Below are positions 1 through 15,478 of a stretch of 16,850 nucleotides of DNA, in pieces. The notes below the pieces were generated by a model. The model saw nothing but the letters and a program-made list of their open reading frames with translations, was not told the origin of the DNA and made no database searches. How positions within the stretch are numbered: position 1 is the stretch's first letter; every line of letters starts with the position of its first letter. Source of the DNA: a virus. Taxonomy: Duplodnaviria; Heunggongvirae; Uroviricota; Caudoviricetes. The stretch spans positions 1 to 16,850 of the IMG/VR virus record IMGVR_UViG_2778261504_000002; one strand, given 5' to 3'. A program made the translations under genes and the position numbers.

Positions 1-301
<301 letters not shown>

Positions 302-305
<4 letters not shown>

Positions 306-919
306 AAATCATCCACCTTAGGCGCAGCTGAGACAGCAACATTCCAGAACTCAGAAAACATATTGTATGCACCAGATAGATTGGAAGTAGCATACCCTCC
401 AAGCTCACTTCTAATCTGAACGGCTCTCATCATTTCCGGGGTTAACTCCTTCGGCACCATAACCCAACCATCCGGAGTTACCGGAGAGTTGCCACCGGGA
501 ATATTTTCCGGAATATTTTGTTGTGCGTTTTGTGGTTGTTCTGATTTACCCTGAAGCATGGCGGCGCGGCAGGCGTTCCAGCCAGCTGTTCGCCCAAGCG
601 CGTAAACTTCAGATGGATCAAGATAATCAATGTCATGCCCGTCCTCATCGTCGTTCTCAGGTAATGCAGCAGGTACTACCGGTACTGGCGGAGCGGCGTA
701 GACCTCAATAATTCCATTATCAATAGGCCATTCTCCATCCTTGAGGTAGTCACTTGTGCCGTCAACTTGCTGTTCTGCAATGTGGAATGCACCTATTGGT
801 TTTGCTTCCAGCGATGCCAGAGCAATCCGTGCCAGTTCCATTTGTTCGCCACTAGTAAGTCCGTTATCAAGCGGGGATTTAATGAACAATTCGATACGTT
901 CTTTAGTGATAGTGCTCAT
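302..919 (-). CDS. hypothetical phage protein
   Basis: Track ORF 302..1018 trimmed to the ATG at 919 (MSTITKERIELF...), which has an AAGGAG Shine-Dalgarno about 6 nt upstream and sits 2 nt from the stop of the upstream gene. No recognisable domain. Confidence 0.5.
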
Positions 920-920
920 A

Positions 921-1478
921 TCACTCTCCTTTGATGCGAATGCCAGCTGCGCTTGCTGATTCTTCATATGCGCGTTTAGCAGCGTTAAGGATTGCTGCCA
1001 GTGGCGTATAGCCGCCATCCATTCGGATTGTGTTGTGGATGCCAGCCATTGTGTCGCGCAATTTGCTGTGGCTAGCAGACAGTTCTGCTATGCACTTCTC
1101 TGCGGCATCGGCTCGATCTTTTTCACGCTGGAACATTTTGTGAGTGCGGTCTATAGCTTCGATTCGTGCCGCTGATGTCTTCTGCACGGCTTCAAGCTCA
1201 ACACGCAGCTTCCCAACCGTAAGAGCAATATCCTCGTTCTTCTGGTCGCGGCGTTTGATGTATTGCTGGTTTCTTTCCCGTTCATCCAGTAGTGCCAGCA
1301 CGGTTTCTGGCCCGGTCAGAAATTTGAAGGCGTTGAGCGCATCAATATCCACACCGTAATCCTTAAGTTCCTGTTCAGTTAACAAATCATCATCAACTGG
1401 CAACATTAACAGGCGTTCCATTGCCGGAATTGCACGCTCTGCCGCCTCACGCAGTGCCTGATAGTCAATCTTGCTCAT
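921..1478 (-). CDS. hypothetical protein, predicted coiled-coil
   Basis: 185-aa ORF in the leftward operon, translationally coupled to its neighbours (4-nt start/stop overlaps). Charged, heptad-like composition. Function unknown. Confidence 0.55.
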   Translation of the reverse strand: MSKIDYQALREAAERAIPAMERLLMLPVDDDLLTEQELKDYGVDIDALNAFKFLTGPETVLALLDERERNQQYIKRRDQKNEDIALTVGKLRVELEAVQKTSAARIEAIDRTHKMFQREKDRADAAEKCIAELSASHSKLRDTMAGIHNTIRMDGGYTPLAAILNAAKRAYEESASAAGIRIKGE

Positions 1479-2050
1479 TGGATGACTCCTTTACGAAGCT
1501 GTTCGGCGATATCTTCGAGAACGCCATCAGAGAATGAACGGTCAAAATCGCCTTCCGGCGCATTGGCCATAAACTCAGTAGAGGTAAGAATCATCCGGGC
1601 AATATCAGCGGCGTTCTTCGCAGTATCATCAATAAAACCAGCTTCCCAGGCAGCCAGCATTCTGTTCGCCACAAAGTAAGCGCCCTCCTTGCGTGCTTCA
1701 GTCTTCACTTCAGGCAGAAAAGCATCGGTGGCTGGGGTTTCAGTAATATCATCTTCCCATTCGCTAAACTCCTCACGACAAAAGTCATTAAATTCCTTCT
1801 CAGATTGCTTAAGCGAGGAATTTTCAGCAGCCATCTTCGCGCATTTAGCCTCAAGGTTATCAATCGTGATTCCAGCAGAACGACACTCCCGCAACGCCGT
1901 TTCTAGTTTTGATTCAAGTTCACCGAACTTACGGACAAGATATTCATCGTTTGTTTCGTCAACCTTTAAATCACTTGGGATGCATTTACCTTTCAGAAAA
2001 CCATCCATCTCAATTAGTGTCATTTGTTTCATTTCTTCCCACTCCGCCAC
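1475..2050 (-). CDS. hypothetical protein
   Basis: 191-aa ORF in the same polarity, overlapping both neighbours. Acidic with a coiled-coil-like central region. Function unknown. Confidence 0.55.
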
Positions 2051-2193
2051 ATCGCATTCAGATATTTGTTGTCATTAACAGAACCGAAACTCTTTCTCTT
2101 AAGCAATTCCTCTCTCGATGGCATTGGCTTTGCGCGTTGGCGAATAATCATTTCTGCCGGAAGAATGCCGGGATTGTATGCAAGTCCTCTCAT
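2029..2193 (-). CDS. small hypothetical protein (start uncertain)
   Basis: Track ORF 2029..2343 overlaps the upstream gene in another frame. An internal ATG at 2193 is preceded by GAGGAA; an alternative ATG lies at 2211. About 55 aa. Confidence 0.3.
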
Positions 2194-2203
2194 GGTAAAT
2201 TCC

Positions 2204-2497
2204 TCAGTCATTACTGATAGCGCCATAGCGTGAGCGGTAATTACGCAGGCGCGGGTCAATTTCAGGGAAGTGGGTATATGTGGCTTTGCGGAATGGTCGG
2301 ATTGATGTCTGGTAAATTCGCTCGCGTTCTTCTTTCTCTGCAAGCCATATACAATGGCGAAATTCCTTTTCCTCTTTCGTTTCCTGCGGTAGCGACATTA
2401 TCCGATCGTAGTTTTTTCTGAATTTATCCAGCACCTCCGATACGGAATTGCCGGAACAGCGGCGCGCGTCATCCGCACCATACAGAGGCGCTGGCAT
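2204..2497 (-). CDS. hypothetical protein
   Basis: 97-aa ORF starting 16 nt downstream of the exonuclease stop with a GGAG-type ribosome-binding site. No recognisable domain. Confidence 0.5.
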
Positions 2498-2513
2498 GGT
2501 TTTCTCCTGTTGA

Positions 2514-3062
2514 TTATTTAGCTAACTTTTTCCAGATCGCTGAAACGTATTTGGCTTGGTGAATGGCATCATCAAGCGCGTTGTGGCGAGTTCCTTTGAA
2601 TGGCATATCTCGCTTAGGGTCTAATCCTATTACCCTCCCAAGTTCGACGATTGTTCTTACGTCGCGGTCATTCCACCACTGCCACGGAACTGGCTGCCCT
2701 GTCAGCGAATAACTGTTTCGGAGAATAACGCAGTCAAATGATGCTCCATTCCCCCAAACCTGAACGAATTTGTGGTTAGCGTTCTTTATGATGAATTCAG
2801 ATAACCATGAAAGAGCCGTTGAAAGCTCCTGAGTGTTGCTGGTTAGCGATTTTCTGGCTTCTTCACTCTGTTCCAGCCACCATAAAATCGTTGAAGCGTC
2901 AGGACGCGCCCGATATCGCATTGATGACTCAAGCGAGATATTTACCGAGAACTCTTCTCCTGTTTCTCCGGTATTCGGGTCAAAGAATACCGCCCCAATA
3001 GAAATAACTGGCGCATATGGCCCGTTGCCCATTGTTTCAAGGTCAACCATTAAGTGATTCAT
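2514..3062 (-). CDS. DnaQ-like (DEDDh) 3'-5' exonuclease
   Basis: 182-aa ORF with N-terminal MVDLETMG (Exo I DxE motif) and C-terminal HNALDDA (Exo III H-x4-D motif). Sits directly downstream of ssb in the recombination module. Confidence 0.75.
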   Translation of the reverse strand: MNHLMVDLETMGNGPYAPVISIGAVFFDPNTGETGEEFSVNISLESSMRYRARPDASTILWWLEQSEEARKSLTSNTQELSTALSWLSEFIIKNANHKFVQVWGNGASFDCVILRNSYSLTGQPVPWQWWNDRDVRTIVELGRVIGLDPKRDMPFKGTRHNALDDAIHQAKYVSAIWKKLAK

Positions 3063-3070
3063 GTAAGTCC

Positions 3071-3577
3071 TTAAATTGCGTGAATAGCGTGACGAGGGAA
3101 GGGGAGAGTTACTGGTGCAAAGGGTATATCGTCGTCAAAATCCATCGGAGGTTCGTTGTGTTGTGCTGGTGATGATTGCTGCTGTGGCTTCTGTGATTGC
3201 CTGCTGGCTGCTTGTTGTTTGCTGTCGCCAATTCCGCCAAGCATTTGCATCACGCCATTAATTCCGACATGAACCTCGGTTGTGTAACGGTCTTGCCCTG
3301 ACTGGTCTTTCCACTTTCTGGTTCTCAGCATTCCCTCGAAATAAATCTGATCACCTTTTTTCACATACTGCCCCACGACCTCAGCCAGTTTCCCGGATAT
3401 AGCAACACGATGCCATTCAGTCAATTCCTTTTGCTCGCCAGTATTTTTATCTCGCCATTGTTCTGACGTGGCTATTGTCAGGTTAGCGAACGCTGTACCT
3501 GATGGTGAGTATCGAACTTCCGGGTCTTGTCCTACCCGACCAAGGATAATCACCTTATTTACGCCTCTGCTTGCCAT
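3071..3577 (-). CDS. ssb: single-stranded DNA-binding protein
   Basis: N-terminal OB-fold sequence closely resembles E. coli SSB ([21 protein letters not shown]...TEWHRV), followed by a Q/S/P-rich linker and the acidic [10 protein letters not shown] tail. The ORF unusually continues 15 codons past DDDIPF. Confidence 0.9.
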
Positions 3578-4285
3578 TTATGCCGCCTGTTTTAGTTCGT
3601 TAACTCTGATGTTCATTACCTGAACGCATTTAGCCTGCGCCTCCTCATTGCCAGCCATTAATTGCCAGTCACGCTGATAACGCTCGATGAGTTTTTTCTT
3701 GTCAGTTTCTGTTGACGCATAATCGCTGAAGTCTTTCAGGATTTGTTCGCAGTCAACCGATGGAGATTTCTGGTTGGTATTTTCTGGTGATGGTTTGTTA
3801 TCTGATGCTGGTATTGCCCATCCCGGCAGCGATGGAGGGAGCCAGTAAAATCCTGTTCCATCCTTGAGTTTTGCCCTGTGCCATCCCTGCTTTTTATCGA
3901 GAGATGTTTGTGCGAAACCTTCCTCAAGGTTATACAGATACCGACCGATTCCCCACTGAACGGCAGCGCGCTTCATTGCACCGGAACGACCACCTTTGAC
4001 GGCTTCTACCTGCGTGTTTTCAGCAGCATCCCATTTGGTTACCCATTCGGAATCAATCTTTATTGATATGCCGCATTCAACGCCGCCGTTGTTGGGAATA
4101 TCGCGGTATTCATTGCGCCATCCTGCTTTGCCGCAAACATCGTCCAGGCGTTTCATGATTGCCCGGTTCGTTACATAAGCCAGCACCATAGCCCACACTT
4201 TGCCATCGCGTGTTTTACCGCTTTGCTGTATTCGCCATTCGATATCTTCAGGGCTGAATGGCTCATCGAATTTATTCAAATCCAT
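3578..4285 (-). CDS. single-strand annealing recombinase, Rad52/Sak-like
   Basis: 235-aa ORF immediately upstream of ssb and abutting it. The motif AMKRAAVQWGIGRYLY resembles the conserved Rad52-fold region. Start has a GAGGTG ribosome-binding site. Confidence 0.65.
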   Translation of the reverse strand: MDLNKFDEPFSPEDIEWRIQQSGKTRDGKVWAMVLAYVTNRAIMKRLDDVCGKAGWRNEYRDIPNNGGVECGISIKIDSEWVTKWDAAENTQVEAVKGGRSGAMKRAAVQWGIGRYLYNLEEGFAQTSLDKKQGWHRAKLKDGTGFYWLPPSLPGWAIPASDNKPSPENTNQKSPSVDCEQILKDFSDYASTETDKKKLIERYQRDWQLMAGNEEAQAKCVQVMNIRVNELKQAA

Positions 4286-4293
4286 AATTCACC

Positions 4294-4464
4294 TCAGAAT
4301 GGACACGGCCCAAGGAAATAACGCTGATTTAATACTTCAACTCGGGACAAATTAAGGCATACCCGCATTCCTTCGCGGTCGCCATTATGGCGATACCAGA
4401 GAGCTTTCTGCGTGTACATGCGTCTCTGTAACTTGCTCTCCTTCACTGTGGTTGCAAGTGACAT
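4294..4464 (-). CDS. small hypothetical ORF (56 aa)
   Basis: Hand-translated ORF below the track threshold (MSLATTVKESKLQRRMYTQ...), with AAGGAG 7 nt upstream of the ATG. Overlaps another small ORF (4385..4543) in a different frame, so at most one is likely fully real. Confidence 0.25.
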   Translation of the reverse strand: MSLATTVKESKLQRRMYTQKALWYRHNGDREGMRVCLNLSRVEVLNQRYFLGPCPF

Positions 4465-4543
4465 GAATATCTCCTTCGTTACCGATTAATTCTTTCATCT
4501 GACGAATGAATTCTTCGTCTGACCAGTTATCTGTAAAACTCAT
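4385..4543 (-). CDS. small hypothetical acidic ORF (52 aa)
   Basis: Hand-translated (MSFTDNWSDEEFIRQMKELIGNEGDIHV...). ATG overlaps the stop of the Kil-like ORF; ribosome-binding site is weak. Competes with 4294..4464. Confidence 0.25.
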   Translation of the reverse strand: MSFTDNWSDEEFIRQMKELIGNEGDIHVTCNHSEGEQVTETHVHAESSLVSP

Positions 4544-4692
4544 TTCCTGCGATACCACGGATGGTTGATAGCTGATTTCATCGCTTTATTTGCTTCAAGC
4601 CACATTTTTGAATCACCAATAAATCTGGCTATTACTGCTTTGTTCTGTGCAGCACGAAGCATCTGGTGATTGATGGCTATTTCATTGCGCAT
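4540..4692 (-). CDS. kil: Kil-like small protein (host division inhibitor family)
   Basis: Hand-translated 50-aa ORF MRNEIAINHQMLRAAQNKAVIARFIGDSKMWLEANKAMKSAINHPWYRRK. The FIGDxKM..EA core resembles lambda Kil as I recall it. GGAGG sits 5 nt upstream of the ATG. Position between cIII-like and the recombination genes matches lambda gene order. Confidence 0.45.
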   Translation of the reverse strand: MRNEIAINHQMLRAAQNKAVIARFIGDSKMWLEANKAMKSAINHPWYRRK

Positions 4693-4811
4693 AACGCCTC
4701 CAGTTGTTTCTTTGCTGCTCTGATTAATTGTTTAACTCGGCGTGATAATTCAGATTCGTGCGGGTAGAAAGCGGACATGACGCCGCTACCCGCGAGCTGA
4801 AAGTGCATCAT
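4677..4811 (-). CDS. cIII: cIII-like small protein (FtsH inhibitor family)
   Basis: Hand-translated 44-aa ORF MMHFQLAGSGVMSAFYPHESELSRRVKQLIRAAKKQLEALCAMK. The pattern AG..V....P.ES.L.R..R.L resembles lambda CIII (IAGWPVAGCPSESLLERITRKL). AAGGAG 6 nt upstream. The 79-aa track ORF 4677..4916 contains it, but its N-terminal part looks non-coding. Confidence 0.5.
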   Translation of the reverse strand: MMHFQLAGSGVMSAFYPHESELSRRVKQLIRAAKKQLEALCAMK

Positions 4812-4994
4812 GGGTAACTCCTTATATTTGATTGCATAACGAAAACGCCTCGAGTGAAGCGTTATTGGTATGCATATAAAAAAGCCCTCACACTGGAGGG
4901 CAAAGAAGATTTCCAATAATCAGAACAAGTCGGCTCCTGTTTAGTTACGAGCGACATTGCTCACATAGCAGACTCGCAAATCTGCTATAGGTGC

Positions 4995-5153
4995 TTATTC
5001 GCATCGCATGACAACATCAAATTTTTCGAGATTACTTTGTCGCAACAATCCTTCTTCTACGCGGTCAGCTTTTCTATAATTATCAAATTCGAAATGTTTA
5101 ATTACTTCTTTCGTTTCTCGCTCTATAACTTCAACAATGTATTTCTTATTCAT
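4995..5153 (-). CDS. small hypothetical ORF (about 52 aa)
   Basis: Hand-translated ORF (MNKKYIVEVIERETKEVIKHFEF...) whose ATG overlaps the stop of the upstream 98-aa gene (ATGA arrangement). AT-rich, below the track threshold. Confidence 0.3.
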   Translation of the reverse strand: MNKKYIVEVIERETKEVIKHFEFDNYRKADRVEEGLLRQSNLEKFDVVMRCE

Positions 5154-5449
5154 CATTCTTCCCCAAGAGCTTTTCTGATTGCTGCAAGACCTTTATTAAC
5201 AGCTCCATACCATTCTGGATATGTTGTCTTTGTTCTATTTTTGGTTTGCTTAAGTAATAACTGAAGTGCTTCGAGAAGGTCAGGTGCTGCCGCTATTAGA
5301 TTGGCATCTTCAATGCATTGAACTTCCTCACAGATTGCAATATACGAACGCCAGCCTGCGCCATTTTCAAGTGAGTCTGCCTGGATGATTTTAATCTCAT
5401 CGCCATCCATCATTATTTCCCACTTACCTTCAGTACCTTTAAATTCCAT
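5153..5449 (-). CDS. hypothetical protein
   Basis: 98-aa ORF in pL-operon polarity, immediately downstream of a terminator-like hairpin. No recognisable domain. Confidence 0.5.
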   Translation of the reverse strand: MEFKGTEGKWEIMMDGDEIKIIQADSLENGAGWRSYIAICEEVQCIEDANLIAAAPDLLEALQLLLKQTKNRTKTTYPEWYGAVNKGLAAIRKALGEE

Positions 5450-5470
5450 GTTAGCCTCTGTTGTTTATGC

Positions 5471-5496
5471 CAAAAATAAAGGCCGACTATTCGGCC
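5471..5496 (-). terminator. intrinsic terminator-like hairpin within the pL operon
   Basis: GGCCGA-N4-TCGGCC stem at 5481..5496, followed on the minus strand by TTTATTTTTG. The hairpin overlaps the stop codon of the 107-aa gene. A candidate N-suppressible terminator. Confidence 0.5.
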
Positions 5497-5810
5497 TTAT
5501 CTACATTCCTGAACCAAACGCAGATCGGACCGTCTTCTGTATCGTGAATCGAACCGACAAACCATCCTTCTCCATCTGGCATGCTTGGCTCCCATCCACT
5601 GATGTTTTGATTCCCATCTTCAAAATACGCGTCAATTACCGTTTGATTGTTGTCGTTTTCCATTTCAACAATTGATGATTCAATGCCATGCTGCTTGCAG
5701 AAAGATCTGAACTCATCAGCTGAAATTACCTCTCTATCCCCAAACAGGTTGGCGTATTCTGGGTGCGTCCAGTAGCCATCCTCGCTTCGCTCTACTACTA
5801 ATGCTTCCAT
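5487..5810 (-). CDS. hypothetical, strongly acidic protein
   Basis: 107-aa ORF with a GAGGTG ribosome-binding site. About 24 Asp/Glu against about 6 basic residues. No recognisable domain. Confidence 0.55.
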   Translation of the reverse strand: MEALVVERSEDGYWTHPEYANLFGDREVISADEFRSFCKQHGIESSIVEMENDNNQTVIDAYFEDGNQNISGWEPSMPDGEGWFVGSIHDTEDGPICVWFRNVDKAE

Positions 5811-5990
5811 ATCTCACCTCAAATAAGTGGTTTGCTGCCTAATTTCATTTTCTGGCGACCAACACAAGTCACACCCATTTCACTGCGTGGCTTGCTGTAG
5901 TAAAGATTGTGCCTGTCTTTTAACCACATCAGGCTCGGTGGTTCTCGTGTACCCCTACAGCGAGAAAAATAGTAAAATCCTCTCACCCCC

Positions 5991-6353
5991 TTATTTTATC
6001 AGGGGGATATCTCCTTCAGTTCTGACCATTCGCCTTAATACTTTCCTTAAGTCGATGTAAAGTTGAAGGTCTCCATTTGCTGCGGCATCAGCCATTTTTT
6101 GCCTGACAAGCAGTAATGTTTCATACGGCTCAATAAGAATATCGTCATGAGTAATTAGGTGAAGCGTTGCCGCATCAACTATTCCTAGAGCTGCGCCAAG
6201 TATCAAAAATTCCCTGCTATTTTTGTCACATGAGGAGGTAAGCGTATTTAGCGCATACCTAATATTCTTTATAGCTGTTGTTAATGCTGCAATTTCTTCT
6301 ATGGCGTCTTCTTCAATGAGCTTTTTAAGCTCATATTTTTCTTCCTGACCCAT
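5991..6353 (-). CDS. hypothetical protein
   Basis: Track ORF 5991..6422 trimmed to the ATG at 6353 (MGQEEKYELKK...), which follows a GAGG ribosome-binding site and lies 2 nt downstream of the N stop. A hairpin CCCCCT-N9-AGGGGG overlaps its stop codon. Confidence 0.5.
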   Translation of the reverse strand: MGQEEKYELKKLIEEDAIEEIAALTTAIKNIRYALNTLTSSCDKNSREFLILGAALGIVDAATLHLITHDDILIEPYETLLLVRQKMADAAANGDLQLYIDLRKVLRRMVRTEGDIPLIK

Positions 6354-6355
6354 AA

Positions 6356-6739
6356 TTACCTCGCCGTCAGTTGTTTTGATTTCCGGTAGCCTGCCGCGTA
6401 AATGGCTACGTTTGGAAGACATACACCAGTTTCTGGTTGCTTATGTCCAAACTCATTCGCGTACACAATGGCCGCTCGCTCCAGATTGCGTCTGTATTCT
6501 TTCTGTTGCCAGATCACGTCCTGTGCCATGAACTTAATTGGCTTAGCGTCTTCTATGCGCTCAGGCGTTTCGTGAGTACCTTTAGCCTGAATCTGCGCTC
6601 TGCTTAGAGTAGGGCGGTGTAATACTTCTGAACTTATTGCTTCTTCGCGGGCCAGTACGCCGTTAGCTAATGCCTTTGCCTTTAAACGCTCACGACGACG
6701 AGAACGTGAATTGCCTTTGAACTGAGTTCTGCGTGTCAT
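6356..6739 (-). CDS. N: N-type transcription antitermination protein (P22 gp24 family)
   Basis: Track ORF 6356..6841 trimmed to the ATG at 6739, preceded by AGGAGG. The N-terminus has an arginine-rich motif (TRRTQFKGNSRSRRRERLKAKA). The C-terminus LPNVAIYAAGYRKSKQLTAR closely matches the end of P22 gp24 (LLPGVALYAAGHRKSKQITAR) as I recall it. Confidence 0.75.
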   Translation of the reverse strand: MTRRTQFKGNSRSRRRERLKAKALANGVLAREEAISSEVLHRPTLSRAQIQAKGTHETPERIEDAKPIKFMAQDVIWQQKEYRRNLERAAIVYANEFGHKQPETGVCLPNVAIYAAGYRKSKQLTAR

Positions 6740-6868
6740 ATAGACCTCCTGATGAACTTTGGTGGTGAATACAGCCGGGCGACTAACTCCGGTCGCGTAA
6801 TCATTGCAAAGCGCCTCCGCCGAGAAGGTTAGCTTCTGCATTCACCCCAAAGTTCACTTTGGTTATTG

Positions 6869-6883
6869 CGCTTTGTCAGCGCC
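6869..6883 (-). promoter_or_regulatory. nutL boxB hairpin (P22-type)
   Basis: Minus strand reads GCGCTGACAAAGCGC, a 5-bp stem with a GACAA loop, between pL and N. A convincing boxA was not found. Confidence 0.6.
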
Positions 6884-6950
6884 GTAGATTCATATTCGAA
6901 TCGTTGTATATTCACCGCCCTGGTGAGTAGTGCGTCCTGCTGATGGGTGA

Positions 6951-6998
6951 ACTTTATCGGAATGATAAATTAATGGCAATAGCAAAATGATAAATTCT
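6951..6998 (-). promoter_or_regulatory. pL promoter with OL operator repeats
   Basis: Minus strand reads TTGCCA-17 nt-TAAAGT (-35 at 6974..6979, -10 at 6951..6956). The 10-mer ATGATAAATT occurs at 6962..6971 and 6987..6996 and again in the cI-cro intergenic region. Confidence 0.55.
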
Positions 6999-7170
6999 CT
7001 TGGTTTTCAAATATCGTATTGATTCTTATGGTGTTTTATTTTGTTGTAGGAATTCGACAGGATAAATAAAGAGATTTGAGGGAGATCTGGATTGCGTTGT
7101 TTAGCAAGTTGTATCTATTTATTTTTCAACAAATACAATTGGTTATGTGTTTTTAGGTGTGGGGATCGTG

Positions 7171-7200
7171 AGGCAAAGAAAACCCGGCGCTGAGGCCGGG
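7171..7200 (-). terminator. intrinsic terminator downstream of the TAC module
   Basis: CCCGGC-N6-GCCGGG hairpin at 7183..7200, followed on the minus strand by TTTTCTTTG. Lies 10 nt after the stop of the chaperone gene. Confidence 0.55.
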
Positions 7201-7209
7201 TGGGGAATT

Positions 7210-7614
7210 TCACTTATTACTGTTCGTTTCCATGGGATTGGCCAAGAAATCAAAATAAGGCAGAGTGAACCTACCAAGGTTTGACATGAGGATAATTTGC
7301 TCGGCATATGTTTTTATATAGGGATATGCCATATTGGGAGCAATGGACCTTACCTCATATGATTTTGCCATTTCATGAGAAAAATCATCTTCTGACCGGA
7401 AGTCAAAGTCGTATGTGATGTCCATCTCAAGCCTGCCTTCAATAGTTACGGAGGCAAAATATCTCACTCTAAATAGCTTTGAATCCTTCACATTAGTGTA
7501 AAGTTCATTATTTAGATTAACGGTTGTTTTTATGGCTTTTTTTGCTGTTGAATCGCCTTCTAGCCGTGTCATAACCAAGCGTTCAACTTTTTTGCTAATG
7601 AGTTCAATTTTCAT
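7210..7614 (-). CDS. SecB-like chaperone of a toxin-antitoxin-chaperone (TAC) system
   Basis: 134-aa ORF whose start overlaps the antitoxin stop (ATGA). C-terminal region IAPNMAYPYIKTYAEQIILMSNLGRFTLPYFDF resembles SecB ([25 protein letters not shown]) and the M. tuberculosis TAC chaperone Rv1957 (YPYIREYVYDLTGRLALPPL). AT-rich compared with flanking phage DNA. Similarity judged from memory. Confidence 0.6.
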   Translation of the reverse strand: MKIELISKKVERLVMTRLEGDSTAKKAIKTTVNLNNELYTNVKDSKLFRVRYFASVTIEGRLEMDITYDFDFRSEDDFSHEMAKSYEVRSIAPNMAYPYIKTYAEQIILMSNLGRFTLPYFDFLANPMETNSNK

Positions 7615-8267
7615 GGTAATAATAAGTAATTTCCGTCAGAAGTCATTTCGTCATTCAGGTTGCTAGCCGCTGTGAAACTTGATGACAAGTTACTTATCAA
7701 AGAAAAAACATTCCGTTTTTCTTTGCATTTGCCATTACCCCTTACTGCGCTGAACAACATTTTTGAAAAGTAAGATTCTGTAGCCTTTTCAGCGAAATAA
7801 GCAGAAGGTGATGTGACGGCTGACTCACACCGAGCAATGACGCTAGTCATGGCTGTTTCTTCTTCCTCTGCGTCAACTAGGCTCCATTCAATTGCGCTCA
7901 TATCTTGAATTAAGATATCTGCAGGAATTCCAAGTCCGTCATGTAGTCTACGGATCATTGAAAGACTTAATGGACGCTTACGATTTAAGACCTCAGATAC
8001 TTTAGATGCTGAGCCAATGTATTGTTTCATATCGGCATAAGAGAGGCCTTGTTGATCCATACGGAACTTGATTGCTTCTATGGGATCTGGCTTGTCCATA
8101 GGGAACTCGCGTGACTCATAGTGCTCGATAAGCAAGCCTAGTAGTTCAAACTCATCAAAATCTTCAGTTCCAGGTTGTAAATCACTAGACGCAAGTTCAA
8201 TGAGCCTTTCCATAGCTGCAGCATGCTCTTCACTATTTTTAATGATGCGCCAGCTAGTTCGATTCAT
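7611..8267 (-). CDS. higA: HigA-like HTH antitoxin with a roughly 95-aa C-terminal extension
   Basis: Residues about 60-125 (IKFRMDQQGLSYADMKQYIGSASKVSEVLNRKRPLSLSMIRRLHDGLGIPADIL) resemble E. coli HigA. The ORF continues about 95 aa beyond the point where canonical HigA ends. Start overlaps the toxin stop. Confidence 0.7.
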   Translation of the reverse strand: MNRTSWRIIKNSEEHAAAMERLIELASSDLQPGTEDFDEFELLGLLIEHYESREFPMDKPDPIEAIKFRMDQQGLSYADMKQYIGSASKVSEVLNRKRPLSLSMIRRLHDGLGIPADILIQDMSAIEWSLVDAEEEETAMTSVIARCESAVTSPSAYFAEKATESYFSKMLFSAVRGNGKCKEKRNVFSLISNLSSSFTAASNLNDEMTSDGNYLLLP

Positions 8268-8551
8268 TTAAGCCTCCACTTGTCGTACTCTGCATGAGTT
8301 CCAACTCTTTCAACTATGACCATTCCTGCCTGGTAAACAACTTGGACAACGAGCCGATAGTTATTGCCTTTTATATTAAAAATTACCCTGTTGTTAGGAA
8401 GGAAGTCGGCAGAATTAAATCTATTCCGTATGTCTTGAGTCGTTTTCCAGTTTTCTCTTATCACTTCATCATACCAAGAGTCTAAAGCCCCCTTGGCCTG
8501 ATTGTGCTTCCGGCTAAAACTGTGAAGCTTCTCTACGTTTAAGACCTTCAT
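8264..8551 (-). CDS. higB: HigB-like toxin (RelE/ParE-fold mRNA interferase)
   Basis: 95-aa ORF. C-terminal RVIFNIKGNNYRLVVQVVYQAGMVIVERVGTHAEYDKW aligns with E. coli HigB (HYVFNVGGNELRVVAMVFFESQKCYIREVMTHKEYD) as I recall it. Toxin-first order and tight coupling to the antitoxin. Confidence 0.75.
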   Translation of the reverse strand: MKVLNVEKLHSFSRKHNQAKGALDSWYDEVIRENWKTTQDIRNRFNSADFLPNNRVIFNIKGNNYRLVVQVVYQAGMVIVERVGTHAEYDKWRLK

Positions 8552-8563
8552 AATCCGATTTTG

Positions 8564-8605
8564 TTCCCTCTTTGGGAATTATAGATTCATTTCCCATAAA
8601 GGGAA
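8564..8605 (-). promoter_or_regulatory. TAC promoter with paired inverted-repeat operators
   Basis: Perfect TATAAT on the minus strand (plus 8578..8583), flanked by two copies of TTCCC-N5-GGGAA (8564..8578 and 8591..8605), within 60 nt upstream of the higB ATG. The proximal repeat also covers the AGAGGGAA ribosome-binding site. Confidence 0.45.
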
Positions 8606-8687
8606 TCTGTATTTTTATCCAGAAATGCTATGTACATCACCCAAACGTCTCTTCAGGCCACTGGTTACCAGCTATGTGACGATGAAG

Positions 8688-9392
8688 TCACGAACTTTTC
8701 AGCCACTCCCTTGCCTCGATGTCATCCAGATGGCGAGATTGCTTCAGAATACCAGCCACATACTCCACCTTTGCTACTTGATGATAAGGCAACGTTATTG
8801 GCCTGTGGTCCTGGTTGATGCTTGTAAATTGGTATTCTCCGTCTCTGTCATAGCCAAGAACTTTGATCATGTTGTGTCCTTCAACAGTTCTGACAAACAC
8901 CTCATCACCCGGGAATACTTTGGTGTTAGGCTCAATGAGTACATATTCTCCTGATTTTATTCTGGGCCACATGCTGTCTCCTTTCACACGAAGACCAAAG
9001 GCATCTGGATCATCGCTATAAATTTTGAGCCACCCATCGCGCTCTTCGGTCATCTCGATGGCACCATCAACACCAAGAATTGCCTCACCAACCACGCGCA
9101 CTAACCCTTTTCTTACCTGACCGACAAAAGTTAAAGAATCTGAGCATGATGCAATTGGTGTTACATCATGTACCAAATCAAGCCACCCATTAGGTAACCC
9201 AAGCGCGGCTTCAAATTTTCTTGCTAGTTTATCCCCTATGTTTCGAGTGCTTTTTTCACCGGAGACTTGCGTGAGTTGAGAAGGGCTAACCCCAAGCTTA
9301 TCGGCAAAGCTTGCATTAGTGTTACCCGCGATTTTTTTATGCTCATCTAGCAAAAACGCCAGATTCGATTTGCGAATATCTTTGTTTTCCAT
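8688..9392 (-). CDS. cI: CI-like prophage repressor (HTH plus S24 LexA-like peptidase domain)
   Basis: 234-aa ORF transcribed away from cro. N-terminal HTH (NASFADKLGVSPSQLTQV) and a C-terminal region with the GDSMWP Ser-protease motif and a downstream Lys, as in autocleaving repressors. Sequence is unlike lambda, 434 or P22 repressors as far as I recall. Confidence 0.85.
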   Translation of the reverse strand: MENKDIRKSNLAFLLDEHKKIAGNTNASFADKLGVSPSQLTQVSGEKSTRNIGDKLARKFEAALGLPNGWLDLVHDVTPIASCSDSLTFVGQVRKGLVRVVGEAILGVDGAIEMTEERDGWLKIYSDDPDAFGLRVKGDSMWPRIKSGEYVLIEPNTKVFPGDEVFVRTVEGHNMIKVLGYDRDGEYQFTSINQDHRPITLPYHQVAKVEYVAGILKQSRHLDDIEAREWLKSS

Positions 9393-9419
9393 CTCACAAT
9401 TTTCCCTCTATTTAGCAAA

Positions 9420-9500
9420 TGGATAAATACGCAATATGATAAATTTACATTGCGGATGATTTATCAAAATGGTAAAGTTGTTCTGTGTGATAAACGGAGG
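9420..9500. promoter_or_regulatory. OR operator region with pR (and presumably pRM)
   Basis: Plus strand reads TTGCGG-17 nt-TAAAGT (-35 at 9450..9455, -10 at 9473..9478) upstream of cro. Operator-like repeats ATGATAAATT (9436..9445), ATGATTTATCA (9456..9466) and TGATAAAC (9488..9495). Architecture mirrors pL. Confidence 0.5.
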
Positions 9501-9505
9501 CACTA

Positions 9506-9739
9506 ATGAGTAATGAACTACTACGCTGGCGAAAAGAGGCTTCTAGTGAGGAATGGAAGCGACTCGCCGCATTAGCGAAAACTTCAGTTGGCTATCTTGA
9601 CCAGATTGCATATGGATTTCGAAGAGCTTCCCCTGATAAAGCGAATGCAATCGAAGAAGCTACTCGTAATTTCACGGGTTATAAACCTGTGAAAAAGGAA
9701 AACCTAGTGTTCGTATCGCGTAGAGCATCGGCTGCATAA
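9506..9739 (+). CDS. cro: Cro-like HTH regulator
   Basis: 77-aa ORF transcribed away from cI, with a GGAGG ribosome-binding site. First gene of the rightward operon. Family assignment is by position and size rather than strong sequence recall. Confidence 0.6.
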   Translation: MSNELLRWRKEASSEEWKRLAALAKTSVGYLDQIAYGFRRASPDKANAIEEATRNFTGYKPVKKENLVFVSRRASAA

Positions 9740-9777
9740 GTAACACCGCTATTTTCACAATGGACATTCGTCCTACG

Positions 9778-9792
9778 TCGCTGACAAAGCGA
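9778..9792 (+). promoter_or_regulatory. nutR boxB-like hairpin
   Basis: TCGCTGACAAAGCGA: 5-bp stem with the same GACAA loop as the nutL boxB. Located between cro and cII. Confidence 0.5.
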
Positions 9793-9877
9793 GTCCCAAT
9801 ATATCTGACCAACTAAGGCCACATGCGTTTCCACGCATACCTTTCAACTAACTATTCACTATTGGAAATCTTAAGAA

Positions 9878-10177
9878 ATGGAACAAACAAGTTACAGCAA
9901 ACTATCACAGCGAGAAATTGATCGCGCTGAAACTGATTTACTCATCAACCTGTCAACGCTTACCCAGCGCGGTCTGGCAAAGATGATTGGCTGTCATGAA
10001 TCGAAGATAAGCAGAACGGACTGGAGATTTATTGCTTCGGTCTTGTGTGCTTTCGGAATGGCATCAGACATCAGTCCGATTAGCAGAGCTTTTAAGTATG
10101 CGCTTGATGGACTCACCAATAAAAAACGCCCGGTGTGCAAGACCGAGCGTTCTGAACAAATCCAGATGGAATTCTGA
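9878..10177 (+). CDS. cII: CII transcriptional activator
   Basis: C-terminus LTNKKRPVCKTERSEQIQMEF matches lambda CII (ILTNKKRPAATERSEQIQMEF). The HTH region differs from lambda. Confidence 0.9.
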   Translation: MEQTSYSKLSQREIDRAETDLLINLSTLTQRGLAKMIGCHESKISRTDWRFIASVLCAFGMASDISPISRAFKYALDGLTNKKRPVCKTERSEQIQMEF

Positions 10178-10199
10178 GGGAATTACTGGATCAATCCAC
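10119..10199 (-). ncRNA. oop: oop-like antisense RNA
   Basis: The region over the cII 3' end and the cII-O junction matches lambda oop as I recall it. On the minus strand it ends in a hairpin (CGCTCGG...CCGGGCG) plus TTTTTTAT. Confidence 0.45.
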
Positions 10200-10209
10200 A
10201 GGAGTCATT

Positions 10210-11148
10210 ATGACAAATACAGCAAAAATACTCAACTTCGGCAGAGGTAACTTTGCCGAACAGGAGCGTAATGTGGCAGATCTCGATGATGGTTACGCCA
10301 GACTATCAAATATGCTGCTTGAGGCCTATTCAGGCGCAGATCTGACCAAGCGACAGTTTAAAGTGCTGCTTGCCATTCTGCGTAAAACCTATGGGTGGAA
10401 TAAACCAATGGACAGAATCACCGATTCTCAACTTAGCGAGATTACAAAGTTACCTGTCAAACGGTGCAATGAAGCCAAGTTAGAACTCGTCAGAATGAAT
10501 ATTATCAAGCAGCAAGGCGGCATGTTTGGACCAAATAAAAACATCTCAGAATGGTGCATCCCTCAAAACGAGGGAGGTTCCCCTAAAATGAGGGACATCC
10601 CTCAAAACGAGGGAAAATCCCCTAAAACGAGGGATAAAACATCCCTCAAATTAGGGGATTGCTATCCCTCAAAACAGGGGGACACAAAAGACACTATTAC
10701 AAAAGAAAAAAGAAAAGATTATTCGTCCGAGAATTCTGGCGAATCCTCTGACCAGCCAGAAAACGATCTTTCTGTGGTTAAACCGGATGCTGCAATTCAG
10801 AGCGGCAGCAAGTGGGGAACAGCAGAAGACCTGACCGCCGCAGAGTGGATGTTTGACATGGTGAAGACCATCGCACCATCAGCCAGAAAACCGAATTTTG
10901 CAGGGTGGGCTAACGATATCCGCCTGATGCGTGAACGTGACGGACGTAACCACCGCGATATGTGTGTGCTTTTCCGCTGGGCCTGCCAGGACAACTTCTG
11001 GTCCGGTAACGTGCTGAGTCCGGCCAAACTCCGCGACAAGTGGACCCAGCTCGAAATCAACCGTAACAAGCAACAGGCAGCCGTGACAGCCAGCAAACCA
11101 AAACTCGACCTGACAAACACAGACTGGATTTACGGGGTGGATCTATGA
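10210..11148 (+). CDS. O: replication initiator O
   Basis: Near-identical to lambda O along its length (MTNTAKILNFGRGNFA...TNTDWIYGVDL), with an extra 13 aa (GGSPKMRDIPQNE) in the iteron-encoded segment. Confidence 0.95.
   Translation: MTNTAKILNFGRGNFAEQERNVADLDDGYARLSNMLLEAYSGADLTKRQFKVLLAILRKTYGWNKPMDRITDSQLSEITKLPVKRCNEAKLELVRMNIIKQQGGMFGPNKNISEWCIPQNEGGSPKMRDIPQNEGKSPKTRDKTSLKLGDCYPSKQGDTKDTITKEKRKDYSSENSGESSDQPENDLSVVKPDAAIQSGSKWGTAEDLTAAEWMFDMVKTIAPSARKPNFAGWANDIRLMRERDGRNHRDMCVLFRWACQDNFWSGNVLSPAKLRDKWTQLEINRNKQQAAVTASKPKLDLTNTDWIYGVDL
10559..10682 (+). repeat. ori-lambda iterons (six copies) with adjacent AT-rich region
   Basis: Six tandem roughly 18-19 bp repeats of the TCCCTCAAAACGAGGGA type inside O, followed by the AT-rich stretch at 10683..10720. 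Canonical lambda has four as I recall. Confidence 0.85.
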
Positions 11149-11846
11149 AAAACATCGCCGCACAGATGGTTAACTTTGACCGTGAGCAGATGCGTCGGAT
11201 CGCCAACAACATGCCGGAACAGTACGACGAAAAGCCTCAGGTACAGCAGGTAGCGCAGATCATCAACGGTGTGTTCAGCCAGTTACTGGCAACTTTCCCG
11301 GCGAGCCTGGCTAACCGTGACCAGAACGAACTGAACGAAATCCGCCGCCAGTGGGTTCTGGCTTTCCGGGAAAACGGGATCACCACAATGGAACAGGTTA
11401 ACGCAGGAATGCGCGTAGCCCGTCGGCAGAATCGACCATTTCTGCCATCACCCGGGCAGTTTGTTGCATGGTGCCGGGAAGAAGCATCCGTTATCGCCGG
11501 ACTGCCAAACGTCAGCGAGCTGGTTGATATGGTTTACGAGTATTGCCGGAAGCGAGGCCTGTATCCGGATGCGGAGTCTTATCCGTGGAAATCAAACGCG
11601 CACTACTGGCTGGTTACCAACCTGTATCAGAACATGCGGGCCAATGCGCTTACTGATGCGGAATTACGCCGTAAGGCCGCAGATGAGCTTGTCCATATGA
11701 CTGCGAGAATTAACCGTGGTGAGGCGATCCCTGAACCAGTAAAACAACTTCCTGTCATGGGCGGTAGACCTCTAAATCGTGCACAGGCTCTGGCGAAGAT
11801 CGCAGAACTCAAAGCTAAGTTCGGACTGAAAGGAGCAAGTGTATGA
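11145..11846 (+). CDS. P: replication protein P (DnaB helicase loader)
   Basis: Essentially identical to lambda P (MKNIAAQMVNFDREQMRRIANNMPEQYDEK...KFGLKGASV). Start overlaps the O stop. Confidence 0.95.
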   Translation: MKNIAAQMVNFDREQMRRIANNMPEQYDEKPQVQQVAQIINGVFSQLLATFPASLANRDQNELNEIRRQWVLAFRENGITTMEQVNAGMRVARRQNRPFLPSPGQFVAWCREEASVIAGLPNVSELVDMVYEYCRKRGLYPDAESYPWKSNAHYWLVTNLYQNMRANALTDAELRRKAADELVHMTARINRGEAIPEPVKQLPVMGGRPLNRAQALAKIAELKAKFGLKGASV

Positions 11847-12133
11847 CGGGCAAAGAGGCAATTATTCATTACCTGGGGACGCATAATAGCTTCTGTGCGC
11901 CGGACGTTGCCGCGCTAACAGGCGCAACAGTAACCAGCATAAATCAGGCCGCAGCTAAAATGGCACGGGCAGGTCTTCTGGTTATCGAAGGTAAGGTCTG
12001 GCGAACGGTGTATTACCGGTTTGCTACCAGGGAAGAACGGGAAGGAAAGGTGAGCACGAACCTGATTTTTAAGGAGTGTCGCCAGAGTGCCGCGATGAAA
12101 CGGGTATTGGCGGTATATGGAGTTAAAAGATGA
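11843..12133 (+). CDS. ren: Ren
   Basis: 96-aa ORF matching lambda Ren (MTGKEAIIHYLGTHNSFCAPD...). Start overlaps the P stop. Confidence 0.9.
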   Translation: MTGKEAIIHYLGTHNSFCAPDVAALTGATVTSINQAAAKMARAGLLVIEGKVWRTVYYRFATREEREGKVSTNLIFKECRQSAAMKRVLAVYGVKR

Positions 12134-12158
12134 CCATCTACATCACTGAGCTAATGAC

Positions 12159-12190
12159 AGGCCTGCTGGTAATCGCAGGCCTTTTTATTT
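12159..12190 (+). terminator. tR2-like intrinsic terminator
   Basis: Perfect 8-bp stem AGGCCTGC / GCAGGCCT with an 8-nt loop, followed by TTTTATTT. Lies directly downstream of ren, as in lambda. Confidence 0.75.
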
Positions 12191-12203
12191 GGGGGAGAGG
12201 GAA

Positions 12204-12506
12204 GTGAACGATAGCTACCGACAGTTTGAAAACTGGTGGTCAAAAGACAAAAGCCAGTTCACGGGAGACGATGAATTAAAAGAGTTTGCCTGGGTGATAT
12301 GGCAGGCATCGCGCTCTGCTATTGAACTGGATATCGACTGGCCCGAATCGAATGACGACTTTTGGAAAGATGGTGAAGAAGGTGCTTATGCGATGGGTTA
12401 TGAGGATGGGCGTGACAAAACGGTAATTGCAGTAATGAAAGCTATCAGAGCCGCTGGAATTAAAGAGAAGAATTTCGATGAAGCAAACAATATTCCTCCG
12501 AACTAA
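12204..12506 (+). CDS. hypothetical acidic protein
   Basis: Track ORF 12189..12506. Probable GTG start at 12204 preceded by GGGGGAGAGGGAA. Lies between tR2 and ninB, where lambda has no gene. Confidence 0.45.
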   Translation: MNDSYRQFENWWSKDKSQFTGDDELKEFAWVIWQASRSAIELDIDWPESNDDFWKDGEEGAYAMGYEDGRDKTVIAVMKAIRAAGIKEKNFDEANNIPPN

Positions 12507-12888
12507 GCAACAACAGCAAGCCGCAATCAACGCCATCCTCGCAACACCACTCGATAAAGACAAGCCAGTCACCATCCGCATTACTGACTACAAGCGCAAC
12601 CTTGACCAGAACGCAAAATTTCACGCGATGCTGGCGGATATCGCACGTCAGGTTCAATGGTGCGATAAGTGGTTAAAACCAGAACAATGGAAGGTTTTGT
12701 TGATTAGCGGTCATGCAGTGGCAACAAAGCAGGAAGCTGATGTTTTGCCCGGCCTTGAAGGCGAATACGTCAACATTCGCGAAAGTAGCGCGCAGATGAG
12801 TGTGAAGCGTATGGCAAGTCTGATTGAGTACACGACAGCATGGGCTATTGGTCAGGGCGTCAGATTTACCGACAGGAGGTACGAATGA
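12478..12888 (+). CDS. ninB: NinB (recombination protein)
   Basis: 136-aa ORF with the NinB pattern (AAINAIL...[33 protein letters not shown]), comparable to lambda NinB. Confidence 0.85.
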
Positions 12889-13061
12889 GACGACAGCGAC
12901 GAAGTATCACCGACATAATCTGTGAAAACTGCAAATACCTTCCAACGAAACGCTCCAGAAATAAACGCAAGCCAATCCCAAAAGAATCTGACGTAAAAAC
13001 CTTCAACTACACGGCTCACCTGTGGGATATCCGGTGGCTAAGACATCGTGCGAGGAAATGA
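12885..13061 (+). CDS. ninE: NinE
   Basis: Track ORF 12840..13061 trimmed to the ATG at 12885 ([27 protein letters not shown]...), near-identical to lambda NinE. ATGA overlap with ninB. Confidence 0.85.
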
Positions 13062-13063
13062 CA

Positions 13064-13465
13064 ATGCTTTTAATTCAACCTGGATTTGGACTTAGCATCA
13101 AAAAAGGCCACATGTTTGGCGAGAAAGAGTCACAACGAAAAATGGTGTCTATCCGGTTGCCATTTATCAGTATTTATTGGCTAAACAGGGAGGCAACAAA
13201 TTATTGGTATACATGCGCCAGAGCAGCATTTAACGACCCTGACTGGTTTGTGAAAAACCACCACGCAGTTCGTCAGGCAAAGAGAAAGGCCAATATGACA
13301 TACATGAAGGCGTATCAAAAAGCATGGAAAGAACACCGCGATCGATACCAACAAGACATGGAAAAGCTTGAATCAGAAAACATGGAATTAAGACGAAAGC
13401 TCGGTGAAGCAAAACGAGACATTGATGCTTACAAGCGACTTTTTAATGGTGAAAGCCATGCTTAG
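13064..13465 (+). CDS. hypothetical protein (start uncertain)
   Basis: Track ORF 13022..13465. ATG at 13064 has GAGGAA 7 nt upstream. The C-terminal part is coiled-coil-like. Lies between ninE and ninF, which abut each other in lambda. Confidence 0.4.
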   Translation: MLLIQPGFGLSIKKGHMFGEKESQRKMVSIRLPFISIYWLNREATNYWYTCARAAFNDPDWFVKNHHAVRQAKRKANMTYMKAYQKAWKEHRDRYQQDMEKLESENMELRRKLGEAKRDIDAYKRLFNGESHA

Positions 13466-13634
13466 CCCATCCCAATCCCTTCAATACCAGAAAGAAAGCG
13501 TCGAGCGAGCTTTAACGTGCGCTAACTGCGGTCAGAAGCTGCATGTGCTGGAAGTTCACGTGTGTGAGCACTGCTGCGCAGAACTGATGAGCGATCCGAA
13601 TAGCTCAATGTACGAGGAAGAAGACGATGAGTGA
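13458..13634 (+). CDS. ninF: NinF
   Basis: Track ORF 13404..13634 trimmed to MLSPSQSLQYQKESVERALTCANCGQKLHVLEVHVCEHCCAELMSDPNSSM..., which matches lambda NinF. Confidence 0.85.
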   Translation: MLSPSQSLQYQKESVERALTCANCGQKLHVLEVHVCEHCCAELMSDPNSSMYEEEDDE

Positions 13635-14136
13635 TGTTAAAGAAAAAGATATCCCCGGCTTTGAGGGTATATATAAAGTAACTGAAAATGGAGACATCAT
13701 TTCATGCCGTAAATCAAAAAAATTATCTCATGGCATTAAACCAGGAGGATATGCATTTGTCGGTCTGTATCCAGGTGGCGGGAAAAGACCATCATATAAA
13801 ATGGTTCACAGAATTGTTGCAGAAGTATTTATTGATAACCCAGATGGCAAACCGGAAGTTAATCACAAGGATGGAAATAAACTTAATAATAAAGTTGAAA
13901 ATCTTGAGTGGGTAACGCGAACAGAAAATGCGAAACATGGATTTGATTCCGGATTGCTTGTTCATGGGTTTAATCATCACTTCTGCAAACTAACGCCAGA
14001 ACAAGTGAAATCAATATATAAATCAAAAGGCAAATACAGAGATATAGCCAAAGAATTTGGTGTTTGTGCGCAGACAGTGTGCAACATAAAAAACAAATCA
14101 GCGTACCGACGTTTTTTGGAGGGGATTGATGTTTAG
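13627..14136 (+). CDS. HNH homing-type endonuclease
   Basis: 169-aa ORF with a NUMOD4-like N-terminus (GFEGIYKVTENGDIIS) and an HNH motif (VNHKDGNKLNNKVENLEWVTRTENAKHG). Markedly AT-rich codon usage relative to neighbours. Confidence 0.75.
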   Translation: MSDVKEKDIPGFEGIYKVTENGDIISCRKSKKLSHGIKPGGYAFVGLYPGGGKRPSYKMVHRIVAEVFIDNPDGKPEVNHKDGNKLNNKVENLEWVTRTENAKHGFDSGLLVHGFNHHFCKLTPEQVKSIYKSKGKYRDIAKEFGVCAQTVCNIKNKSAYRRFLEGIDV

Positions 14137-14763: not shown

Positions 14764-14948
14764 ACGCCACAATTCAAACGATACCAGAACTGCTTATACA
14801 GGCACGAGGCAATCAGACCGAAGTGGCGAGGATGCTTTCCTGCGCAAGAGGAACAGTGCTCAAGTACAACCGAGACAGAAAAGGCGAGCGTCACGTAATA
14901 GTTAACGGCGTCCTGATGGTCACGCCAGGCAAAAAGGGAAGACGATGA
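14760..14948 (+). CDS. ninH: NinH
   Basis: 62-aa ORF with GNQTEVARMLSCARGTVLKY...HVIVNGVLMV, matching lambda NinH (GNQTEVARRLKCSRGTVRKY...HAIVNDVLMV). Confidence 0.8.
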   Translation: MNATIQTIPELLIQARGNQTEVARMLSCARGTVLKYNRDRKGERHVIVNGVLMVTPGKKGRR

Positions 14949-15433: not shown

Positions 15434-15439
15434 AACGTG

Positions 15440-15468: not shown

Positions 15469-15478
15469 ATTCGCATAA

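Follow-up and report, generated by a model that had tools for sequence, protein, structure and literature searches.

Overlapping cIII and kil homologues of the HK022/HK97 type in the predicted early leftward operon of a mosaic lambdoid phage

The DNA analyzed here, referred to below as the window, is a stretch of 16,850 nucleotides from a Caudoviricetes record (IMGVR_UViG_2778261504_000002, positions 1 to 16,850). When the minus strand of positions 4300-5100 was read, two short open reading frames were found, one of 44 codons encoding MMHFQLAGSGVMSAFYPHESELSRRVKQLIRAAKKQLEALCAMK and one of 50 codons encoding MRNEIAINHQMLRAAQNKAVIARFIGDSKMWLEANKAMKSAINHPWYRRK, which we assign to cIII and kil, respectively (Table 1). 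The cIII ORF begins with two consecutive ATG codons and overlaps the kil ORF, which lies in a different frame, by 16 nt (4677-4692). An AAGGAG sequence at -6 nt precedes cIII, and a GGAGG sequence at -4 nt precedes kil. A sequence-only reading made before this analysis had placed two overlapping minus-strand micro-ORFs of 44 and 50 aa within 4540-4811 and had credited both with Shine-Dalgarno sequences; its coordinates were exact and both ribosome-binding sites are present. Further, a third small ORF begins with an ATG that shares bases with the kil stop codon (ATGA, 4543-4540), so that the locus consists of a chain of three overlapping cistrons.

Neither ORF reaches 60 aa and both are therefore under the length threshold of the 60-aa ORF track, as had been pointed out in the same reading. 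In that track both ATG-start ORFs are absent, and only a 79-aa extension of the cIII frame starting at TTG is shown. In total, 16 ORFs of at least 20 aa, distributed over both strands, overlap positions 4300-5100. Because such short ORFs are frequent by chance, the existence of the two frames means little by itself, and it is homology that provides the evidence for the genes.

Table 1. Positions of cIII, kil and the surrounding genes and signals in the window.
Feature	Position	Strand	Basis and remarks
Abc2	2204-2497	-	PHROG 656
Exonuclease-like gene	2514-3062	-	PHROG 255
SSB	3071-3577	-	PHROG 44
Erf-like ssDNA-annealing protein, start of the recombination module	3578-4285	-	PHROG 1097
56-aa ORF, homologue of HK022 gp42	4294-4464	-	PHROG 1723, 9.4e-36; annotated in HK022
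52-aa ORF, homologue of HK022 gp42.1	4385-4543	-	PHROG 2123, 6.6e-42; annotated in HK022
kil, HK97/mEp235 type, 50 aa	4540-4692	-	Pfam PF06301, PHROG 2055; ATG at 4692, stop ends at 4540; predicted FtsZ-ring/cell-division inhibitor
kil Shine-Dalgarno sequence GGAGG	4697-4701	-	4 nt 5' of ATG, within the last cIII codons
cIII, HK022 class, 44 aa	4677-4811	-	Pfam PF08134, PHROG 550, identity to annotated CIII; ATG ATG at 4811, stop ends at 4677; predicted FtsH-inhibiting lysogeny factor
cIII Shine-Dalgarno sequence AAGGAG	4818-4823	-	6 nt 5' of ATG
Second hairpin AACGCTTCACTCGAGGCGTT, between the terminator and the cIII ribosome-binding site	4844-4863	-	Terminator scan
Intrinsic-terminator-like hairpin GCCCTC-CAGTGT-GAGGGC followed by TTTTTT, upstream of cIII	4876-4901	-	Terminator scan (4901-4884)
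N-like antiterminator gene, upstream of cIII	6356-6739	-	PHROG 271, 6.8e-40; corresponds to the H-19B N annotation
boxB-like hairpin GCGCTGACAAAGCGC, candidate nutL upstream of N	6868-6882	-	By eye
cI-like repressor	8688-9392		
cII homologue	9878-10177	+	PHROG 191, 4.6e-39

The terminator-like element upstream of cIII is annotated as "putative terminator" in HK97 and as "terminator" in HK106 and HK75, and the terminator scan reported other hairpins of this kind at 7201-7182 and 5498-5479. Downstream, kil is separated from erf by two more small ORFs. In lambda, too, kil comes after cIII, with which it overlaps, and before the recombination genes. The lambda gene order that had been claimed for the window thus holds for the succession of cIII, kil and recombination genes; the recombination genes themselves, however, form a P22/HK97-type module of Erf, SSB, exonuclease-like protein and Abc2 and not a gam-bet-exo module.

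In the opposite direction, the cI-like repressor gene is accompanied by cro, cII, O, P, ren and nin genes, and this rightward region matches H-19B at about 98.5%. The CII homologue is 42% identical to lambda CII and shares with it a near-identical C-terminal tail (TNKKRP..TERSEQIQMEF), ending in TNKKRPVCKTERSEQIQMEF where lambda CII ends in TNKKRPAATERSEQIQMEF. We take this tail to be a signal for rapid proteolysis (compare the title of Kobiler 2002).

The arrangement around cIII is retained in diverged relatives, in which CIII is 74-89% identical to that of the window. These keep the order cIII, kil, recombinase, although the recombinase may be Erf, Rad52 or RecT, and the overlap junction CTGGAGGnGTTATG was found in all of the diverged relatives with this order (six relatives). 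Frequent co-transfer of kil together with erf or recT has been reported (PMC9836094). One relative has an unrelated protein of the KilR family in the position of kil.

The 50-aa product belongs to the Kil family. It matched the Pfam profile PF06301 (Lambda_Kil) with 72.6 bits (cut-off 27.6) and an E-value of 1.7e-20 over profile positions 1-31 of 31, and it fell into PHROG family 2055 (Kil) with an E-value of 2.1e-35. Kil of mEp235 and of mEpX2 has exactly this sequence (100% identity), and Kil of HK97 differs from it at one residue (49/50, 98%), with Leu in place of His44 of the window; all three are of the same length and stand in the same context. When the peptide was compared with lambda Kil using BLASTP, 17 of 30 aligned residues were identical (57%; E = 3e-9). 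The alignment proposed as a check in the sequence-only reading was thus obtained, and the FIGDxKM core that had been recognized there by eye is matched exactly in lambda Kil.

Lambda Kil (47 aa, PF06301) is a ZipA-dependent inhibitor of FtsZ assembly, and Z rings are blocked in a ZipA-dependent way by the Kil proteins of lambda and HK629 (PMC3961180, PMC11762379). An AlphaFold 3 model of lambda Kil contains helices at residues 4-18 and 21-38 with a two-residue turn between them, and activity is lost on deletion of either helix or of the two turn residues (PMC11762379). The AlphaFold2 model of the window Kil, built from a shallow alignment, is a helix-turn-helix with helices at residues 2-25 and 28-42 and a turn at G26-D27 (mean pLDDT 83). 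The predicted fold therefore matches the published topology of lambda Kil, and the two proteins have in common a helix-turn-helix core whose turn region carries FIGDxKM. In a Foldseek search of the model against viral structures, no match was significant, the helical-hairpin fold being too generic; Kil of Serratia phage Eta ranked first (E = 0.049).

The two proteins differ at their ends. Compared with lambda Kil, the N-terminus of the window Kil is seven residues longer, and a basic PWYRRK terminus replaces the hydrophobic stretch and RSSK of lambda. The RSK/RSSK motif present at the C-terminus of nearly all lambda Kil homologues (PMC11762379) was not found in the window Kil, and PWYRR(K) is conserved within its subfamily. 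It is conceivable, accordingly, that the protein is a true member of the family that acts by another mechanism, either independently of ZipA or on a different target of the divisome or of the elongation machinery. The replacement of the C-terminal motif by one conserved in the subfamily points in this direction, as does the turn, in which G-D gives way to GN, GM or GL in relatives. Further, the KilR-family protein in the same slot of one relative indicates that the position tolerates different inhibitors, and KilR of the Rac prophage is described as inhibiting both division and elongation (PMC12482147). Against this, identity to lambda Kil is 57% in the helix-turn-helix core on which the lambda protein critically depends, the predicted topology is the same, and the C-terminus, although different, is still basic like RSSK. 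We consider a different mechanism unlikely; disruption of FtsZ-ring assembly, as in lambda, is the most likely activity predicted from the sequence. A literature search found no experiment on this exact Kil subtype.

The evidence for cIII is similar in kind. The 44-aa product matched Pfam PF08134 ("cIII protein family") with 104.7 bits (cut-off 25) and an E-value of 2e-30 over profile positions 1-37 of 37, and it was placed in PHROG family 550 (CIII; E = 2.6e-13). All 44 residues are identical to those of the annotated HK97 CIII, and identity is also 100% to CIII of HK022, H-19B and mEp235 (GenBank records for HK022, HK97 and H-19B: X16093, AF069529 and AF034975, respectively). The description of this ORF as CIII-like was therefore well founded. 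A tblastn search found the identical protein in 22 phage records, including X16093, the 1989 entry of HK022, which already lists a "cIII gene product (AA 1-44)" and a "kil gene product (AA 1-50)".

Kobiler et al. (2007) distinguished two classes of CIII, the lambda class and the HK022 class, and noted that CIII of HK022, HK97 and H-19B share one identical sequence (PMC1838920). By sequence, CIII of the window is an HK022-class protein and not a lambda-class protein. In all three of these phages the gene has the same place upstream of kil, the same overlap with kil and the same upstream terminator as in the window. There is no difference in the protein; the window differs as a mosaic, in which H-19B-type immunity is combined with an Sf6/HK97-type recombination region. 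In the diverged relatives, codons for conserved CIII residues have changed synonymously, for example at Ser20 (TCT, TCA, AGT or TCC) and at Leu22 and Leu29 (TTA or CTT).

The relationship to lambda CIII is more distant. When the 44-aa peptide was compared with lambda CIII using BLASTP, as had been suggested as a check, no alignment was obtained, nor was there one with the 933W-type CIII (P0059). In our local search, the Pfam profile PF02061.21 (Lambda_CIII) scored 12.4 bits, under its cut-off of 25.7 (E = 0.17). Precomputed Pfam labels in the protein database assign PF02061.22 (Lambda_CIII) to all 32 of 32 relatives of the window CIII. A Smith-Waterman alignment of the window CIII with lambda CIII scored 34 (z = 5.35, p = 8e-4; 20,000 shuffles), and cross-comparisons of CIII with Kil in the same shuffle test scored at background. 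When profiles of the HK022 class and the lambda class were compared using hhalign, the probability was 95.8% (E = 6.8e-9). The lambda-class set was found to hold natural chimeras that end in an HK022-type ...LLCAMK sequence. With the chimeric sequences removed, the hhalign probability was 90.9% (E = 1.2e-6, 36 columns). The hhalign and shuffle tests thus detect homology between the two classes over the region that is essential for activity, and the likeness of the window CIII to lambda CIII, as judged from sequence, is right at the level of the superfamily and at profile level only. To bring the CIII-like residue pattern that had been noted by eye into register with lambda, a two-residue gap is needed.

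Lambda CIII (54 aa, PF02061) is both a competitive inhibitor and a substrate of FtsH, and its residues 14-37 are essential and sufficient for activity (PMC1838920). This region aligns with an amphipathic basic helix in the window CIII, and the N-terminal AG motif and the (P)xES start of the helix are common to both proteins. The leader layout UAAGGAG-N6-AUG, the position in the pL operon and the overlap with kil are also the same. In contrast, CIII of the window is only about 30% identical to lambda CIII, carries a two-residue indel, is 10 aa shorter and has no counterpart of the C-terminal tail of lambda CIII. Five residues of lambda CIII (S17, R24, L26, R27 and R32) give a cIII-minus phenotype when replaced with Ala. 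At these positions the window CIII has two identical residues (S17 and L26), two conservative replacements of Arg by Lys and one unmatched residue; R24 aligns with Lys, and the unmatched residue is R27 or R32, depending on the alignment used. In an AlphaFold2 model based on a shallow alignment, the N-terminus was disordered and residues 21-43 formed a helix (pLDDT 94-96). The hydrophobic moment of this helix was 0.53-0.57 (0.53 for the part aligned with lambda residues 14-37), a value reached by about 0.6% of shuffled sequences; that of lambda was 0.67.

Translation of lambda cIII is governed by alternative mRNA structures, which are captured by the Rfam family RF01804 (Lambda_thermo). RF01804 was not detected in the window: an Rfam scan of the whole window at the gathering threshold and of positions 4400-5000 at E-values up to 10 returned chance-level matches only. 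As a positive control, lambda itself scored 88.5 bits; the leaders of HK97, HK022 and 933W-type phages were also missed, which indicates that the model is narrow. Since RF01804 was not detected, translational control of the lambda type cannot be assumed for cIII of the window. In the predicted fold, the cIII ribosome-binding site is mostly unpaired and a hairpin lies in codons 6-18, whereas the corresponding site of lambda is predicted to be sequestered. A lambda-like alternative, in which UUACCC before the AUG pairs with GGGUAG in codons 8-9, was considered but is not supported: the closed form, with a predicted energy of -18.1 kcal/mol, falls short of the open minimum-free-energy form (-23.2 kcal/mol) by about 5 kcal/mol in stability. 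The fold of this region is in itself unremarkable (z = -1.69).

The codon 6-18 hairpin showed no compensatory change in eight diverged sequences, and the score of the real alignment was equalled or exceeded in 500 of 500 column shuffles. A 26-nt block covering codons 7-14 is invariant at the nucleotide level in the eight diverged sequences, and the flanking codons have diverged. Within the block, six of seven degenerate codons are invariant, compared with three of nine elsewhere outside the kil ribosome-binding site. This excess of invariance at synonymous sites is only suggestive; the block might represent a separate signal acting at the RNA level, for instance a target of RNase III or of an sRNA, or an element that affects mRNA stability. 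Taken jointly, the possibility that translation of HK022-class cIII is controlled unlike that of lambda, or that the PWYRR-tailed, HK97-type Kil has a different target requirement, appears to us improbable.

The best coverage of the window by any single phage or complete E. coli genome record is about 53%. This makes the window a new mosaic, and such a mosaic could be part of a defective prophage in which cIII and kil are relics that are no longer expressed or functional. We regard this as very unlikely: both ORFs are intact and have identical counterparts in phages that form plaques, and no reading frame is interrupted among the neighboring genes N, cI, cro, cII, O, P, erf, ssb and abc2. That the two frames are open merely by chance, in non-coding or otherwise-coding DNA from which no peptides are made, deserves next to no credence despite the plentiful short ORFs counted above and is already refuted as far as sequence evidence goes, as the Pfam and PHROG matches have E-values between 1e-13 and 1e-35, viable phages have annotated genes identical to these two, relatives show synonymous substitutions at conserved residues together with a conserved Shine-Dalgarno/ATG overlap junction, and cIII and kil of lambda are experimentally established genes (PMC1838920, PMC3961180).

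The reading that we prefer, and hold with high confidence, takes the two ORFs as cIII and kil and places them in the leftward early operon, of the pL type, of a lambdoid phage or prophage that is a mosaic. With this reading goes, at the same high level of confidence for the two together, the identification of the window as the early region of such an element, with H-19B-type immunity and an HK97/P22-type recombination module.

Building on the reading frames, family membership, synteny and predicted folds described above, the following account borrows the biochemical activities and the dependence on N from lambda by homology. Once the phage infects or is induced, the N-like antiterminator would act on leftward transcription, which in its modified form would, by analogy with lambda, read through the terminator hairpins upstream of cIII. 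The cIII, kil and small downstream ORFs would then be expressed as overlapping cistrons that are probably translationally coupled. CIII is most likely both a substrate and a competitive inhibitor of FtsH (HflB), a membrane protease, judging from its relationship to lambda CIII, for which inhibition of FtsH has been described to protect CII and sigma-32 (PMC1838920). Inhibition of FtsH would slow the degradation of CII and thereby favor lysogeny; the presumed beneficiary is the product of the cII homologue in the rightward region. Kil would disrupt assembly of the FtsZ ring and impose a transient block on host division during lytic development. The cIII/kil pair would thus mark the window as a lambdoid early-left operon with an intact CII/CIII/FtsH lysogeny circuit and a division inhibitor.

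Neither gene is new: both have been described since 1989 and occur commonly in prophages of E. coli. When positions 4200-5200 were compared with phage genomes using megablast, 364 records were found, and cIII and kil are annotated at both ORFs in HK97, HK022, HK106, H-19B, mEp235 and others. Further, the 272-bp cIII-kil segment is present in about 790 of 5426 complete E. coli genomes. The importance of the locus beyond its correct annotation is therefore small.

What remains of practical use is an annotation gap for HK022-class CIII, which is widespread and trivial to fix. RefSeq/PGAP calls both genes and names kil, but lists the HK022-class cIII product as "hypothetical protein"; lambda-class CIII is named "protease FtsH-inhibitory lysogeny factor CIII". 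The earlier remark that ORFs of this size are easily missed by gene callers was thus borne out in part: cIII goes unnamed in RefSeq and several Stx-phage records carry no annotation whatever, but the RefSeq/PGAP pipeline itself calls both genes. No NCBIfam model matches either peptide or their lambda counterparts. In PHROGs, the family that contains CIII is labeled "anti-termination", which does not agree with the role as an FtsH inhibitor described in PMC1838920.

The sequence of the window forms a new mosaic. Among phage records, coverage of the window peaked at 52%, with a Stx1a-converting phage; among complete E. coli genomes, it peaked at 53%. The match to H-19B spanned 4293-13640, and that to Sf6 spanned 4200-4694 (99%).

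Chimeric cIII genes were found in approximately 30 of the 80 viral contigs that carry an HK97-type kil (L006, L054, L068, L078 and approximately 26 others; proteins P0094-P0100). Because the lambda- or 933W-type bodies of these genes end in the HK022-type sequence ...VEVLLCAMK, the comparison places a recurrent recombination joint near the cIII stop, within the 3'-terminal part of the gene where the ribosome-binding site of kil lies. In one diverged relative (L087), the slot after cIII was occupied by a 65-aa KilR-family protein (PF27398; L087 1620-1817), which has no relation to Lambda_Kil. This ORF overlaps cIII at the CTGGAGGGGTTATG junction that kil also uses, and Erf and SSB come next.

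Within cIII, codons 7-14 (4768-4793) comprise a 26-nt block, GCGGG(T/A)AGCGGCGTCATGTCCGCTT, that was nucleotide-invariant in eight relatives, and the flanking codons were diverged in the same relatives. Six of the seven degenerate codons inside the block were invariant, against three of nine elsewhere in the gene. When covariation was sought among these eight relatives for the hairpin predicted at the block, no support was obtained.

The two overlapping small ORFs after kil (52 and 56 aa) correspond to a single 83-aa "Gp42.1" in the GenBank record of HK97 (L001). This fusion results from two additional single bases in the HK97 record (L001 1502-1753) compared with the window (4294-4543) and HK022, and the extra bases represent either a genuine indel pair or old sequencing errors. 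The families matching these two ORFs (PHROGs 2123 and 1723) are labelled "recombinase" despite a length of just 52-58 aa. Further, the label of PHROG 550, "CIII anti-termination", is at odds with the role of CIII as an inhibitor of FtsH (PMC1838920). A search of NCBIfam for a model of CIII of either class or of Kil found none.

The interval that separates the gene of the N-like antiterminator (N) from that of the cI-like repressor contains the features listed below. In sequence, the boxB-like hairpin resembles boxB of P22.

Features in the interval from the cI-like repressor to N
Feature	Position	Strand	Remark
Three ORFs (95, 218 and 134 aa)	7210-8551	minus	between cI-like repressor and N gene
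Strong terminator-like hairpin	7201-7182	minus	after the three ORFs
Promoter-like site	6979-6951	minus	candidate pL
boxB-like hairpin GCGCTGACAAAGCGC	6868-6882	minus	candidate nutL; ~130 nt upstream of N start (6739)

The 95-, 218- and 134-aa ORFs matched PHROGs 5734, 11202 and 10298, which are function-unknown families, and the N-terminus of the 218-aa product matched a transcriptional-regulator family. The corresponding stretch of the H-19B record carries no annotation. In lambda, the slot taken by these ORFs is held by rexAB, and this shared position suggests that the three ORFs may form a cassette expressed in the lysogen.
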